DNA of 64,000 nucleotides, from positions 64,001 through 128,000 of the forward strand of contig JBHLRZ010000003.1 of NCBI GenBank assembly GCA_048882045.1, written 5' to 3'. The notes beneath the pieces are model-generated. The model was given only the letters and a program-made list of their open reading frames with translations, was not told the origin of the DNA and ran no database searches. The translations under genes and the position numbers were made by a program. The stretch's first letter is position 1. The number at the start of each line of letters is the position of its first letter. The stretch is from Candidatus Thorarchaeota archaeon. GTDB taxonomy: Archaea > Asgardarchaeota > Thorarchaeia > Thorarchaeales > Thorarchaeaceae. This document shows, in pieces, positions 13,173 through 22,333 of the stretch.

Positions 13173-15344
13173 TTAGATCCAGTCGCCAGTTTCAAGTTTG
13201 CGTGGAAGATATACATCCGTCAGATACTCAAAGCTGTGACTGGCAAATGCCTGGATCTCAGCTTTCTCCTTGAGTTGTAACATAAGACGGAGATCCTTGA
13301 CCCACTCTTTGTTTTGTTGGACGAATGGCTCTTTCAGCATATCCTTCACTCGTTTCATGTCGGTCGGTTGCATGGGGATTCTGACTGATTTTGGAATATT
13401 ATATTCATCTAGATCTCGGCTTAATACTCCCAAGAGTTTGAGTTCAGGAGTTGCGATGAATGGTGACTCATAGCTAAGACGTTTACTACCTCTCAAGAAT
13501 ACAGAGTAGATATAGTGCCCATATGGATCAGAGTCGACCAAAGCAAAAGCGGGAATTTCTAGCTCCTTTACTAGCATCTTCAAAAATGCTCGCGTGGCAA
13601 TATCTCCAGAACCTTTTCCTGTCAGTACAATGCAGGGCTGACGATTCCAATACTTAGCCTCTGCAAGCCGCATCACTGCAGCATCTTTCTCTGAGAGGAT
13701 GATAAACTCAGCATCGCTTTCGACAATCTCGAGTTGATCCAGGAAGGGGGTCACAGCCCAACCGCCTGTACCCATTTTGGTAAGGTCGATGAGGTCCCCA
13801 CCATCTCTAATTGTGACTCGGCCCATTGCTGATCCTCGAGCTGATGCAACGACATGGATACTATCTCGAGTAGTCTGGATCATGGATGCGACATCTTCGA
13901 TTATTTTGTCACTGTATTTTTGCTCTCGAAAGAGATTGACATCACTATAGTAGACCTCTCGTTTCGTAGCATGAAGTTTAGACTTGAGCAAGTTGAATAC
14001 GATTTCCATGACCCTGGCCGTACGGGTCGCATCTACAACGGATGCAAGTGAATGGTACGGTCTAGAAATTGTCTTCATTCCTAATAGCAAAAGATCACGA
14101 ATCTCATCCCAAACGATATTGTCACCACTTCTGCTCGGGATATCAAAGGCAGGTCTGCCTGTCATCATTGTTTCATTCAGGATATCGAGTGCAGTATCAA
14201 CGATTCTTTCGGTAGTGTCATCAGCTGTGAGATTTACAACCTCGACTGTTTCGAGAAGGGGTGTAGCATCTTCAGGTAGTGGCGATTTCACTTTCTCCTC
14301 AGCAGTTGCCCATTTCTCCTTCATTTCCACAGCGAACTCAGCCACAGCTTTTGGAACGGGTAAACCTGATTCCTTCTTGATAGGTTTAGCCTTCTTTCTC
14401 TTAGGGGTAGGTTTTGCTTTCTTCACTGGTTTCTTTGGCGTAGGTGCCTTCTTCGGAGCTGCTTTCTTCTTTGACTTTTTGGCCGCAGGTTCCATAGGAA
14501 TCTCTTCCTCAACTGGTTGTTCCTTCTCTGGTGCTTCAACAGTCTTGGCAGATGCAACAACTTTGAGTGTTTCAGGTTCTCCAGTAATTCGTGCAACTTC
14601 CTGAGAATGAATTAGTTCCTTAGCTGCAACAACTATCTGCTCAGCTTTTGTAGAACTCAAACCGTCCACCTTATTTGCGATATTACTTGGACTTGCCCTA
14701 GCGATTCTTGCTACAGAATCATATCCTGCCCTCTCCATAGAGAGAGCGAGCTTTGAACCCAACCCAGGAACATCAGTAAGTGCAATCTTAGGAGGCAAAA
14801 CTTCTTCAGCTTCTTCAGAACCCTCCACTGGTGGTTCAGCTGTGGGGAGAGCCTTACTCTTATTCACCAAGTCCTTCGCAGCATCCACAAGGTTCTTTGC
14901 CCCTGTCGCGCTGAGACCCTCAACCTTCTTAGCGATTGAGGAAGACCTAGCACGGGATATCTTCTCCACCGTTTCGTATTTAGCTTTGATTAGCCTCTCC
15001 TCTAGCTTCGACCCTACGCCAGGGAGCTGCTTGAGACTGAATTCACTCTCTGGAACAGGAGGTTGTGCAATTTTCTTTTTAGCTTGTTTCTTCTTTGCTG
15101 GGGCTTTTTTCTGCGTGGCTGGCTTTTTCTTCTTGGGAGGTTCTTTCTTTTCTGGAGTCTTCTTGGTTGTCTTCTTCTTTGGTTTTGCTGAGGACTTCTT
15201 CTTGCTCGAATCTTTCTTCGGTGTTTTTTTAGCAGTCTTCTTGGTTGTCTTCTTGGTTGTCTTCTTCTTTTTGTCCTCGCCAAGTACCTCTCCAAGTGTT
15301 GCCTGAACAGTTTCAGGCTTCTTCTTCGACTTCTTGCGGCTCAT
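13173..15344 (-). CDS. top6A: DNA topoisomerase VI subunit A (Spo11 family) with long Lys-rich, HhH-containing N-terminal extension
   Basis: Core TKREVYY (catalytic Tyr), EKDA, LTGKG, DSDPYG, KAEIQA; about 370 extra N-terminal residues. Confidence 0.95.
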   Translation of the reverse strand: MSRKKSKKKPETVQATLGEVLGEDKKKKTTKKTTKKTAKKTPKKDSSKKKSSAKPKKKTTKKTPEKKEPPKKKKPATQKKAPAKKKQAKKKIAQPPVPESEFSLKQLPGVGSKLEERLIKAKYETVEKISRARSSSIAKKVEGLSATGAKNLVDAAKDLVNKSKALPTAEPPVEGSEEAEEVLPPKIALTDVPGLGSKLALSMERAGYDSVARIARASPSNIANKVDGLSSTKAEQIVVAAKELIHSQEVARITGEPETLKVVASAKTVEAPEKEQPVEEEIPMEPAAKKSKKKAAPKKAPTPKKPVKKAKPTPKRKKAKPIKKESGLPVPKAVAEFAVEMKEKWATAEEKVKSPLPEDATPLLETVEVVNLTADDTTERIVDTALDILNETMMTGRPAFDIPSRSGDNIVWDEIRDLLLLGMKTISRPYHSLASVVDATRTARVMEIVFNLLKSKLHATKREVYYSDVNLFREQKYSDKIIEDVASMIQTTRDSIHVVASARGSAMGRVTIRDGGDLIDLTKMGTGGWAVTPFLDQLEIVESDAEFIILSEKDAAVMRLAEAKYWNRQPCIVLTGKGSGDIATRAFLKMLVKELEIPAFALVDSDPYGHYIYSVFLRGSKRLSYESPFIATPELKLLGVLSRDLDEYNIPKSVRIPMQPTDMKRVKDMLKEPFVQQNKEWVKDLRLMLQLKEKAEIQAFASHSFEYLTDVYLPRKLETGDWI

Positions 15345-18452: not shown

Positions 18453-19139
18453 TTATCCTACAGGTTGTCCACAGCCACCACAGAATCGAGCTCCAGCTGG
18501 GTAAGCCTTGCCGCAATTATGACAATAGCCTGCGGCATTCGATGGTCCCCGATCAGAAACGTGAATGGTCATGGAATCACCACCACTTGGTGCTGCCTCG
18601 CCAGAACCACCCTCAATAACCCCGCCACAGTTGGGGCAGGATGGTACGTTTCCAGCATTCGCTCCGCAGTAGGGACATTTTCCCGCCTCTTGAGCGGAAG
18701 TTAGATTGGCAATTACCGAGGGGATGACCTTCTTTTGTTTGAAATCGAATTGCATGTCACCGCCTGACTTTAGTGAAATTATCAGTCTGTTGCCACTCTG
18801 GGTCGCTTGGCTGATTGCGATTACCGGAATAGCAAGGCTCTCGGTGTTGCCTTTATCATCCTTGTTGAAATAAGAATCTCGACTCCAAGACGAGATTGCA
18901 GTACCAACTGCAGCGTAGGTTATTCCTCTAGCAAGACCGCGTGTGATACTTCGACCCAGTCCACCCATCTGTCTTCCTGCACCTTCGAGTAATGCAGCTC
19001 CTGCAACTGCTCCTGCGATGGCCCCCCACTTCTTTGCACCACCCCATTTGCTTGGATTCTTGTACCAGACAATTCGAACATCCGTTACTTCTACTGATCC
19101 ATCTTCACCGTCAAACTTGACATCCTTCTCCCTCACCAT
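18453..19139 (-). CDS. Zinc-ribbon protein with Gly-zipper hydrophobic segment and possible split PH-like domain
   Basis: Four CxxC knuckles at the C-terminus; GAIAGAVAGAALL segment; start chosen at the ATG downstream of GAGG. Confidence 0.7.
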   Translation of the reverse strand: MVREKDVKFDGEDGSVEVTDVRIVWYKNPSKWGGAKKWGAIAGAVAGAALLEGAGRQMGGLGRSITRGLARGITYAAVGTAISSWSRDSYFNKDDKGNTESLAIPVIAISQATQSGNRLIISLKSGGDMQFDFKQKKVIPSVIANLTSAQEAGKCPYCGANAGNVPSCPNCGGVIEGGSGEAAPSGGDSMTIHVSDRGPSNAAGYCHNCGKAYPAGARFCGGCGQPVG

Positions 19140-19311
19140 TTTCCTCTCATGCTTCATAGTGTCTAATCCAGAACCAGAATAGGAAACGGTAAGAAACTGT
19201 GGTCTATCACTCAATTGTAAGCACCGAAGCTCAATCAACGAAAGTGAGTATTAACTTTGTGCTGGCAGACAAAATGGAGAATGGCTGTCCCAAGGTACAG
19301 CCATCACTAGA

Positions 19312-20793
19312 TTACTCTTCAATAGCTACCTCTTCAGCAATCTCAGGAGATGCTTGTGATGCAGCTCCATTGCCCCAGGTTTCCTCTTCAAGGACAGGAC
19401 GCTCTTGGTGGAGACCGTTCCTTATCAGAAAAACTCCACCCAATGATACTAGACCACATAGGGCAAGGGTCAGGGGAAAGCCGATGACAGGGATAGCTAC
19501 AATCCAACCGAATAGTGCAATCTGAGGAATTGCGAACAAGGTGGCAATTGTTGGAGATAGTGAATACATCGAATTCCTGATACGATTCGGAATGACATCG
19601 AGTAACACACGCTGCGTCAAAATCTCTGCGAACCCTCCAAAGAAACTCGTTGCCACAAAGGTGGAGAAGATGATAATTATCGGGAGTAAGTTCTCAATAG
19701 GTAGTGTCAGAATAGCAATTTCTGTGAAGGGCCAATAGACCACAAGGGTGTTTCCATCAGGGGGTGCCGGTGGAAGAATCCACATTATCAGTGCAAAGAC
19801 CCAGAAGAACACAAATCCACAGGTCTGAAGCAAGCGAAACCGTGGAATCCACTTCTTTGGCTCAAATCGACGACTCCACACTCCAGATCGTTCCTGTGCT
19901 ATAACTCCGGGCAGAAATAGTGTTGTTCTGAAACTTGCTACTGCAACATCTGTTATTAGGTAGAGGAAATACATTGGGAACAGAATTAGATTGCCCCAGA
20001 CCAAGATGCTGCTTGTGGCGAGCATTCCACCGACAACGATATTCCTTACAAATCTGTGCTTGAATAGGAAACTCACTCCACCCTTCAATATGGATACGTA
20101 CTCACTCATCTCAGGACGCCCGGTACGCTGCTCCTCGACTTCTGGAAAGTCCCTGACTAACCTGAATACGAGTATTGCAAGAAACAGTGCGAGAATGGCC
20201 TGCAATTGAAACACCCATGGTCTTGAGAATACCACTGCTAAGATCCCGCCAGGAATCAGACTGGCTGTCGCAAAGATCTGCATCATCATTCCCATTCGAC
20301 CCCAGAAGACACCATACTGCTTGCGGTCAGTGTCGCCCGGCATAGCAACGCGATAATTGTTGTCGAACCATGCTCCCCAGGCTCCACTCTGCTGAGACTG
20401 CGCAAAGCCCTGAATGGCATAGACAGCCATGAGATAGAAGAATGGAGTTTCTGTTGTGACAAAAGAAACCATGAAGAAAGAAATGGCATAGGAAACAGAG
20501 GCAGATGCCACGATGTATCTCTGTCCAATCCAATCACCGACTGCCCCTGTCGGATAGTCCAAAAGAATCTGGACCACCATCTGGACCACGACAAGGGTGC
20601 CTACAAGACCCATCCCTTGAAGGTACATTCCTGGTCCACCTCCCAATGCCTCAGCAACAAAGATGACATAGAAAGTGGTCGATAGCACAAAGGTAACATT
20701 AGCCAGCGGTCCGAGCATCGCCATTATAGTTGCCAGACGGAGAACCTTTTCATTGGCGTCTGGCAGACCAAGAAAGGCTTTCATTCTACTCAT
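19312..20793 (-). CDS. MFS transporter
   Basis: About 12 TM segments, DYPTGAVGDWIGQR (MFS motif A variant), IPNRIRNS. Confidence 0.88.
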   Translation of the reverse strand: MSRMKAFLGLPDANEKVLRLATIMAMLGPLANVTFVLSTTFYVIFVAEALGGGPGMYLQGMGLVGTLVVVQMVVQILLDYPTGAVGDWIGQRYIVASASVSYAISFFMVSFVTTETPFFYLMAVYAIQGFAQSQQSGAWGAWFDNNYRVAMPGDTDRKQYGVFWGRMGMMMQIFATASLIPGGILAVVFSRPWVFQLQAILALFLAILVFRLVRDFPEVEEQRTGRPEMSEYVSILKGGVSFLFKHRFVRNIVVGGMLATSSILVWGNLILFPMYFLYLITDVAVASFRTTLFLPGVIAQERSGVWSRRFEPKKWIPRFRLLQTCGFVFFWVFALIMWILPPAPPDGNTLVVYWPFTEIAILTLPIENLLPIIIIFSTFVATSFFGGFAEILTQRVLLDVIPNRIRNSMYSLSPTIATLFAIPQIALFGWIVAIPVIGFPLTLALCGLVSLGGVFLIRNGLHQERPVLEEETWGNGAASQASPEIAEEVAIEE

Positions 20794-20841: not shown

Positions 20842-20877
20842 GCAGTGACCCCCGGATCACACATCGAGGGCCACTGC
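20842..20877 (-). promoter_or_regulatory. 13-bp RNA hairpin upstream of the MFS gene
   Basis: Minus strand GCAGTGGCCCTCG-ATGTGTGATC-CGGGGGTCACTGC, including two G-U pairs. Confidence 0.55.
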
Positions 20878-20926
20878 GGAGATAGGAGATTTGTCCGGTT
20901 AACTTTGATATGAAAGCATCAATGTT

Positions 20927-21046
20927 CTATCGTGGCAATGTGGTCCCTGCGTTGCAGAGCGCTCCGAATGACTGGACCATTACAGACCTGTTCTCAACTG
21001 TCAAGCAGGGCTTGTTCGTTGCAGGTGTTGATAAAGCAGTCATCAT
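20927..21046 (-). CDS. Micro-ORF C, 39 aa (MMTALSTPATNKPCLTVENRSVMVQSFGALCNAGTTLPR)
   Basis: Manual translation; preceded by GGTGAAACA like micro-ORFs A and B; ALS near the N-terminus and S..AL..A near the C-terminus. Confidence 0.5.
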   Translation of the reverse strand: MMTALSTPATNKPCLTVENRSVMVQSFGALCNAGTTLPR

Positions 21047-21199
21047 TGTTTCACCACACTTCCATTTTTTGGTTTGTAGAACACACCATTATATCATTTT
21101 GGTTTCATATAAACATTTACAACAGCGTAATAATTTGTCGAATGTACTATTTTGCTTGTAATTCGGACCAATTACATTGCCCAAGTACATTGAACAAGA

Positions 21200-21304
21200 T
21201 TACCTCCTGTAGATGTATGCATGAGTCAGCGCATCTGTACGCGGGAAGTCGTGGATACGCTTGATTCTTAGAGCAGACCAGTTGTTGTTCTTTGATAGAG
21301 CCAT
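21200..21304 (-). CDS. Micro-ORF B, 34 aa (MALSKNNNWSALRIKRIHDFPRTDALTHAYIYRR)
   Basis: Manual translation; paralogous to micro-ORF A; upstream TTGTGAAACAT. Confidence 0.8.
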   Translation of the reverse strand: MALSKNNNWSALRIKRIHDFPRTDALTHAYIYRR

Positions 21305-21328
21305 AATGTTTCACAACCTTCTATAGGT

Positions 21329-21389
21329 TGGTCACATGATATGCTGTTTCTGAGACAAACTGACCATTTCTGTGACCACTTGGTGACCA
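21329..21389. repeat. TGACCA direct repeats (x3) plus one inverted copy
   Basis: TGACCA at 21361, 21373 and 21384; TGGTCA at 21329. Confidence 0.5.
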
Positions 21390-21454
21390 GTCCTCGATCA
21401 CTCCAGGAGTGGCAGAGAGCCAGTTTATCAGTCGTTCAGTCTTATGCATTCTAT

Positions 21455-21556
21455 TCACCTACGGTACTGATAGGCATATGTGAGGGCTTCAGTCGAGACC
21501 TTAACCTTCTCGTTCTTCAGTACAGATGTGTTTCGTGAGTTCTTACTTAGAGCCAT
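21455..21556 (-). CDS. Micro-ORF A, 33 aa (MALSKNSRNTSVLKNEKVKVSTEALTYAYQYRR)
   Basis: Manual translation; paralogous to micro-ORF B; upstream TTGTGAAACAT and a TATATATA box at about 21589-21596. Confidence 0.8.
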   Translation of the reverse strand: MALSKNSRNTSVLKNEKVKVSTEALTYAYQYRR

Positions 21557-21706
21557 GATGTTTCACAAGAAATACTGTCCATTTTTACTATATATAGCGG
21601 AGCCACTTGTCAGGGTCACAGAAGGGAGTCACATATTGTTACTACTCCATGTCGACATAGACAAGCATATCAAGGGTAGGCAGGGTGCCAAAAAGCGTGA
21701 TTAGAC

Positions 21707-22333
21707 ATGTCTGATGGCGATTCCACTCAGCAACTGATAGAACACTTTTCAGCTTTTACAGAGCAGGAACTAGTGAGGAAGTTTGGTGAGAGAGGGATGC
21801 CCATGTTCAGGCTGTTTCAACGACAGTTCAAGATTCACTACAACAACTATGAGCATATGCTACCAAACCAACTAGCAAAGAAACACGGGATGAACTCGTT
21901 GTTTGTTATGGCCATGGACGATGTCATGTGTGAGGTAAGGGCCTCCTTCTCAGAGCTCAAGGAAACAGTCGTATCGATCTATATAGCAATGATGAGGGAC
22001 TATTTCTCAACAGAATCGGAAAAACTCAAACAGAGTGAGGACCCGTGGACGGCTTTCGTTGACTGGGCTCGGAAAGGAAACGAAGCCAACTACATTAATG
22101 ACTACTTTCAACTCAAGGAAGTAGACCAAGAAACTGGATGTTATGGATTTGACATTAACAGATGTCTATATTTTGACATTCTGAAGGAGGCTGGGAAACC
22201 TGAGTTAGGACCTATCCTCTGTGAATACGATCAAATCTTCATGGACTACGTAGGGGACTGGATTAATTTTACTCGTCGTGAAACCATCGCCACAGGTGAC
22301 TCTCGGTGCAATTTTAGGTATTGTAAGGTTTAG
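21707..22333 (+). CDS. L-2-amino-thiazoline-4-carboxylic acid hydrolase-like family protein
   Basis: FDINRCLY..G.PELGPILCEYD...RRETIATGDSRCNFRY Cys pattern typical of this family. Confidence 0.75.
   Translation: MSDGDSTQQLIEHFSAFTEQELVRKFGERGMPMFRLFQRQFKIHYNNYEHMLPNQLAKKHGMNSLFVMAMDDVMCEVRASFSELKETVVSIYIAMMRDYFSTESEKLKQSEDPWTAFVDWARKGNEANYINDYFQLKEVDQETGCYGFDINRCLYFDILKEAGKPELGPILCEYDQIFMDYVGDWINFTRRETIATGDSRCNFRYCKV

Follow-up and report, generated by a model that had tools for sequence, protein, structure and literature searches.

The two small minus-strand ORFs A (33 aa) and B (34 aa) belong to an undescribed family of about 30-residue basic proteins that almost every Thorarchaeota (Asgard archaea) genome searched keeps in several copies, under promoters shared with efflux pumps and acetyltransferases. 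The most likely reading, held tentatively and inferred from sequence alone, is that they are stress-response effectors. The ORFs lie in a 64,000-nucleotide stretch (the window) of a Candidatus Thorarchaeota archaeon genome (GCA_048882045.1, contig JBHLRZ010000003.1, positions 64,001 to 128,000). The initial annotation had described them as paralogous micro-peptide genes with shared ends around a variable middle, many synonymous differences among the conserved codons and a common upstream sequence, and this observation was confirmed. Its interpretation as small signalling, regulatory or precursor peptides, possibly exported by or regulating a co-oriented MFS transporter, was only partly borne out.

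To determine whether the likeness of A and B could arise by chance, the two were aligned globally. The score was 66, compared with a maximum of 35 in 20,000 shuffles. Among 21,486 small ATG-ORFs of the genome, the nine best scores against A (40 or more) were those of the nine family members, and the next ORF scored 29. An iterated HMM search over 60,247 small ORFs converged on nine copies at six loci with E <= 3e-14 and gave 1.5 for the next hit. Several additions and corrections emerged. A 42-aa ORF, here termed X, had been missed between A and B. A 33-aa remnant ORF and the 39-aa ORF C are also present in the gap of about 900 bp, but C is not a paralogue of A and B. In the window, the array has two paralogues, whereas most orthologous loci have a third after B. 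The 11-mer preceding both A and B is read as a promoter initiator 29-30 nt behind a TATA box. The features are compiled in Table 1.

Table 1. Features of the locus and of related loci. Positions are those of the window unless a locus fetched for comparison (L plus number) or a genome and contig (G000, C plus number) is named.
Position (strand)	Feature	Evidence
21588-21643 (-)	Promoter P1: 17-bp palindrome (21627-21643), two further GTGAC-type half-sites at 13-bp spacing, TATA box (21588-21597)	Near-invariant in 41 distinct loci; 8 copies in this genome against about 0 in shuffles; exact pattern at 117 or more places in GTDB genomes, nearly all named ones Thorarchaeota
21558-21568 (-)	Initiator and 10-nt 5' leader of A (shared 11-mer)	GTGA exactly 30 nt after the TATA start and 10 nt before ATG in 79 of 84 P1 promoters; start site inferred
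21455-21556 (-)	Micro-protein A, 33 aa, first-position class; last codons and stop form the SD of ORF X	Core dN/dS 0.10 in 10 orthologues; predicted helix 22-32
21321-21449 (-)	ORF X, 42 aa, coupled to A; weakly constrained filler ORF overlapping P2	Present in orthologous loci; dN/dS 0.65 with low pS in the 3' half; frame switched in L012, L025, L033
21329-21389 (-)	Element P2: three direct GGTCA half-sites, BRE-like purine run, weak TATA, one inverted half-site; probable internal promoter for B	Occurs without peptides in the leader of a GNAT gene (G000 C7:23412-23492) and before MFS and GNAT genes in other genera; initiator 28-29 nt behind the weak TATA in 18 of 22
21306-21316 (-)	Initiator and short leader of B (shared 11-mer)	
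21200-21304 (-)	Micro-protein B, 34 aa; ends in a full SD	Core dN/dS 0.16 in 10 orthologues
21089-21190 (-)	Remnant filler ORF, 33 aa	Third paralogue found here in relatives is deleted
21072-21114 (-)	Promoter P3-like: TATA (21106-21114) followed by a GTTTG-N5-CAAAC-type operator (21072-21086)	One mismatch in the operator; perfect in L024 and L037; operator travels with the PH1932-like regulator gene
20927-21046 (-)	ORF C, 39 aa, unrelated small ORF	Kept in 5 of 10 orthologous loci; dN/dS 0.12 on only 3 sequences
20842-20888 (-)	13-bp RNA hairpin with a conserved loop (20842-20877), preceded by an anti-SD-like pyrimidine run, in the MFS leader	128 of 130 cells paired in 10 orthologues, with G-U and double-sided changes
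19312-20793 (-)	MFS transporter (MFS_1), 493 aa	Pfam PF07690, E 7e-13; downstream in the complete orthologues of this locus type
18453-19238 (-)	Double zinc-ribbon protein directly behind the MFS	Kept in synteny in orthologous loci
13173-15344 (-)	Apparent topoisomerase VI subunit A with a long Lys-rich N-terminal extension and two helix-hairpin-helix-like repeats	Read by eye from the translation only
21707-22333 (+)	ATC-hydrolase-like gene, divergent from P1	Conserved at this locus type only; probably not part of the system
G000 C12:59225-59341 (L015:2726-2842)	LEAT micro-protein, present at many loci	Second undescribed family, 34-40 aa, ending in E-V-L-x-x-E-A-T; dN/dS 0.27; stop in a terminator-like hairpin
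L014:2388-2495 (G000 C52); also L027, L061, L079	Third small-ORF type with a S-L-Y-[LM]-[DE] motif, ahead of family members	Under a fourth promoter class with a TGTAATAC-type palindrome after the TATA box
L087:1501-2250 (G000 C12:57944-58738)	PH1932-like regulator	Wing with a conserved T-T-D-Y-Y-R-R stretch
L239:1483-1713 (G000 C3)	Histone	Thorarchaeota histones examined end in an A-Y motif in the same register as the peptide core
L051:1142-1354	Public gene call fusing the second peptide to LEAT	TAG read as Gln; the 6-nt gap keeps the two in frame

The distribution of the family was examined next. A single-sequence search recovered it from 24 of 24 genomes of the genus. A profile search recovered it from 78 of 85 other genomes of the family Thorarchaeota, over 16 genera and with up to 14 matches per genome, and from none of about 315 genomes of the other families of the phylum. 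No stop was seen inside any match listed in the single-sequence search. Together with the separate SDs and stops, this ruled out that the motifs are fragments of one decayed larger gene, a possibility that had been named in advance as one that would disprove the family. The exact P1 pattern retrieved records named Thorarchaeota almost exclusively and had no exact match in viral contigs. One record labelled Hermodarchaeota by its submitter (L140) carries a full P1 operon and is possibly a mislabelled Thorarchaeota bin. A search of 1.84 billion proteins returned short family members, a few miscalled fusions, and long multi-repeat hits. The latter were rejected as translated CRISPR arrays, judged by their repeat-spacer layout, that share a few letters by chance. 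Fused products of 70 aa were gene calls with TAG read as Gln in the one case checked. ARAGORN printed no Pyl or Sec tRNA, and readthrough was rejected as unsupported. Apparent minimal forms of 18 aa were due to start codon choice, the true ORFs being 35 aa. No hit was obtained in Pfam, in NCBIfam above noise, in PDB sequences, with Foldseek against the PDB, in Rfam for the region, or in the ESM Atlas for A and for LEAT, and literature searches found no description of the family.

Selection was assessed by pairwise counts (not tree-based) in orthologue sets. The ST-x-A-[ILV]-x-x-A-Y core had a dN/dS of 0.05-0.16, showing purifying selection, whereas the middle had values of 0.4-1.0. The invariant Ala uses all four codons. 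It lies 9-12 residues from the C terminus in all 191 peptides scored, although length runs from 22 to 38 aa. Genes directly before a cargo ORF have exactly 9 residues from this Ala to the end (75 of 78: 59 of 62 before LEAT and 16 of 16 before a large gene, with two different tails), while the others have 10 or 11, and among orthologues of A the register toggles between 10 and 11. In second-position genes, Ala2-Leu3 is kept with many synonymous codons (pN/pS 0.24) at a variable distance from the stop. Last peptides followed only by a terminator also stay under selection (core pN/pS 0.37, residues 2-5 0.20). Mean net charge is +5.6, Tyr content 7%, and mean GRAVY -0.62 (SD 0.34, n = 312). AlphaFold predicted a confident helix only over the core (pLDDT about 89).

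Part of the fixed C terminus was found to be imposed by the RNA. RR-stop is usually AGG-AGG-stop or CGG-AGG-stop. In 133 of 153 genes the last codons and the stop form the Shine-Dalgarno (SD) site of the next ORF, with a start codon following 2-9 nt later, and SD motifs are the top upstream 5-mers in this genome. The end is also a peptide feature: where the SD allows Arg, Gly, or Trp, Arg is used in 56 of 58 cases, and RR persists in several genes without an SD (e.g. L014 and L061). Coupling by such short gaps is documented in archaea (PMC12548453). The common operon consists of a first peptide, a second peptide, and then a cargo, which is either LEAT or an MFS. Of 59 P1-led operons, 23 end in LEAT and 19 carry an MFS gene; the two cargos were never seen together. 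Last ORFs often have their stop inside the 5' arm of a U-tailed hairpin. About 100-250 nt after the operon, a tRNA-like sequence on the opposite strand, seen by eye, follows two locus types (L003, L008, L046, and L047).

Four promoter classes were distinguished. P1, near-invariant across genera, precedes three peptide operons in this genome (two with an MFS), another MFS, a 1106-aa GNAT protein, a bactofilin-domain protein, and two membrane proteins. The 3' half of ORF X is constrained as DNA, changes frame in some relatives, and recurs without peptides before the GNAT gene. We infer that it is a second promoter, which explains why A and B share the 11-mer; A and B thus probably each have a promoter. 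The third class has the operator GTTTG-N5-CAAAC and drives the ancestral operon, which faces a wHTH regulator at essentially all primary loci examined in 12 or more genera. The regulator (wHTH plus helical domain) is predicted to fold like PH1932 of Pyrococcus horikoshii (PDB 1ULY, 2CWE; Foldseek E 3.6e-8, TM 0.59/0.74, 21% identity), for which no peptide operon is described in the papers found. It has nearly the same distribution as the peptides (41 of 43 in the family), plus two genomes of another family in which it has the operator but no peptides. Two profilin-like genes lie right behind the regulator, and a convergent methyltransferase closes the ancestral operon in most genera. In the window this operator precedes ORF C and the MFS and is followed by the covarying RNA hairpin. 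A fourth class drives two more loci in this genome. The window locus therefore reads P1-A-X, P2-B, P3-C-hairpin-MFS, with X and the remnant ORF probably serving as fillers that would keep ribosomes on the leader; polarity in archaea is attributed to FttA. The predicted transcription start sites lie near 21566, 21314, and 21083.

As demonstrated above, the claims of a real peptide family under peptide-level selection, with intact homologues across Thorarchaeota, an MFS gene downstream in the complete orthologues of this locus type, and no described match, were supported. The proposed precursor design with fixed termini and a variable core was weakened, because the middle is close to neutral and the conserved part is the C-terminal core, the reverse of a leader/core arrangement. 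The link to the MFS is optional, as it is seen at only 2 of 6 loci in this genome and in about a third of the P1-led operons. Neither a signal peptide, a hydrophobic segment, a Cys core, nor a co-transcribed modifying enzyme was found. Export as a signal is neither shown nor excluded.

We favor, although with less than even confidence, the idea that A and B are free cytoplasmic micro-proteins forming the output module of a Thorarchaeota stress program, probably set off by xenobiotic or envelope stress; this inducing signal is only guessed from the members of the regulon. What sequence comparison demonstrates is the protein-coding family, the selection on its C-terminal core, the anatomy of operons and promoters, and the promoter shared with two MFS pumps, a large GNAT protein, a bactofilin-domain protein, and two membrane proteins. 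Expression and everything concerning function are deduced. In this view, transcription factors, none of which was identified for the P1/P2 half-sites, would turn on several copies at once. Near-leaderless starts and SD sites built into each stop codon would chain the translation of two to three paralogues, giving a fast, high dose. Each peptide would be a disordered basic arm plus an 11-12-residue helix whose Ala-x-x-x-Ala-Tyr face and terminal Arg dock on one conserved target. The target, which is the weakest step, would most likely be a nucleic-acid-rich complex present in every cell, the ribosome first, because no partner gene travels with all copies and at least four promoter classes drive the family. 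The MFS would be a co-regulated passenger rather than a required partner. This reading is supported by the common occurrence of selected copies without any large downstream gene, the retention of Ala2-Leu3, the number of copies and promoter classes, the predicted helix, the terminal RR kept also in the absence of an SD, and a composition that fits a nucleic-acid binder and not a membrane or secreted peptide. Small stress-induced ribosome-associated proteins (SRA, RMF, eL41/bS22-type) are likewise short, basic, and cytoplasmic, without a dedicated partner gene. The present family differs in its multicopy operons with paralogues and in being less basic, and no sequence match was found in the PDB. 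However, no partner emerged from the analysis, and the reading does not explain, except by ancestry, the fixed register of 9 in genes before a cargo. No fused or longer form was seen (22-38 aa), which is also what peptides acting in the exit tunnel would show.

The main rival, which we consider less likely, is that the peptides are termination-arrest peptides working like SpeFL (34 aa), TnaC, and PepNL of Escherichia coli (10.1101/604074; PMC11890864). The C-terminal motif would act in the exit tunnel and hold the ribosome at the stop codon, where it covers the SD of the next ORF or the 5' arm of a terminator hairpin, gating the cargo (MFS, GNAT, or LEAT) or, in many copies, braking translation as a whole. 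In accordance with this, the motif is anchored to the stop, the pre-cargo class has its fixed register, the stop almost always overlaps an SD or a hairpin arm, and efflux pumps and acetyltransferases are typical cargo. The length, the aromatic residues near the stop, the use of all three stop codons, and the presence of a transporter downstream at some loci match SpeFL and its relatives (10.1101/604074), although no sequence likeness was found and the present family is archaeal, has many copies per genome in series, and varies in register from 9 to 11. On the other hand, many operons have nothing conserved to regulate, as they end in LEAT or in a terminator with a convergent or variable next gene, whereas peptides of the SpeFL/TnaC type would be expected always to precede a co-transcribed regulated gene. 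The register toggles among orthologues of A, two or three sensors in series behind strong promoters are unusual, and B in the window is about 400 nt and one further promoter away from the MFS. An extension of this idea, unlikely but not excluded, is a lineage-wide translation brake or sensor of Asgard archaea. The C-terminal helix and terminal Arg would act in the tunnel at termination, as nascent chain or just after release; the same cassette would gate efflux and acetyltransferase genes where a cargo follows and would slow translation globally through copy number where none does. No report of an archaeal arrest-peptide family was found in the papers searched.

A role as peptide signal or co-regulator, as in SHP/Rgg or ComS/ComR, appears doubtful. 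The C-terminal part would bind the PH1932-like regulator, possibly after export and re-import through the MFS proteins. The divergent regulator at the ancestral locus, its similar distribution, and its operator before the MFS of the window speak for this possibility, and a basic N terminus with a conserved C terminus is the layout of such precursors. However, the regulator is a PH1932-like wHTH protein and not a TPR (RRNPP) receptor, it occurs without peptides in another family and as second paralogues, and the adjacency is confined to the ancestral locus. Most copies use other operators, no hydrophobic export segment was seen, and specificity groups such as signalling peptides show were absent. 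The T-T-D-Y-Y-R-R stretch in the wing of the regulator recalls the peptide end, but a profile comparison showed nothing. Complex prediction of the regulator dimer with a second-position peptide gave a score of 0.01 and is not used as evidence.

Leaderless multi-peptide antimicrobials or RiPP precursors, exported by the MFS with the GNAT and membrane proteins giving immunity, are improbable. Length, charge, and tandem layout without a leader resemble aureocin A70 (30-31 aa, +4 to +5; PMC6131525), and tandem paralogous cationic peptides of 30-35 aa are also found in garvicin KS and the cereucins. However, the mean GRAVY contrasts with +0.5 to +0.7 for aureocin A70 and cereucins (about +0.4 to +0.7 for such bacteriocins in general), conservation is lineage-wide instead of diversifying, and neighbor clustering of the fetched loci revealed no dedicated ABC exporter, immunity gene, or co-oriented modifying enzyme common to them. 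Cys occurs in 9 of 312 peptides, and the only enzymes nearby (a methyltransferase and a radical-SAM-like ORF) are convergent and locus-specific. Accessory subunits tuning the MFS directly, like AcrZ or SgrT, are equally improbable: although 16 cases of direct translational coupling to an MFS_3 gene were seen in one locus type, the peptides lack a transmembrane segment, two thirds of the operons lack an MFS, and the ancestral locus has none. Least likely is mimicry of the histone L2-alpha3 segment to interfere with histone stacking: the C terminus of the genome's histone matches I, S/T, I, A, Y in register and ranks 37-100 of 1.7 million windows and 2nd-4th of 115,000 C-terminal windows in a post hoc test, but the profile comparison was not significant (hhalign probability 0.4%, E 0.16), the pattern is a generic helix N-cap, and the histone's invariant Asp of alpha3 is Ala in the peptides. 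The peptides do not fit proteasome HbYX activators, as only 26 of 312, and neither A nor B, end in hydrophobic-Tyr-X, nor the hydrophobic transmembrane toxins of type I toxin-antitoxin systems, as the mean best 9-residue hydropathy is 0.85 and no Rfam match was found in the region.

Thus, the family failed a defining criterion of every family considered, although its most likely way of working, as a multicopy small-protein stress effector, is of a kind already known. The peptides are short enough to be synthesized, which makes the ribosome, regulator, and histone hypotheses accessible in vitro without culturing the organism. Few regulons are known to have been mapped in Asgard archaea. Here, an almost wholly unannotated gene family with up to 14 matches per genome marks one Asgard lineage and comes with a clean regulatory map, comprising four promoter classes, a candidate regulator with its operator, and a small regulon of efflux, acetylation, and bactofilin-domain genes.
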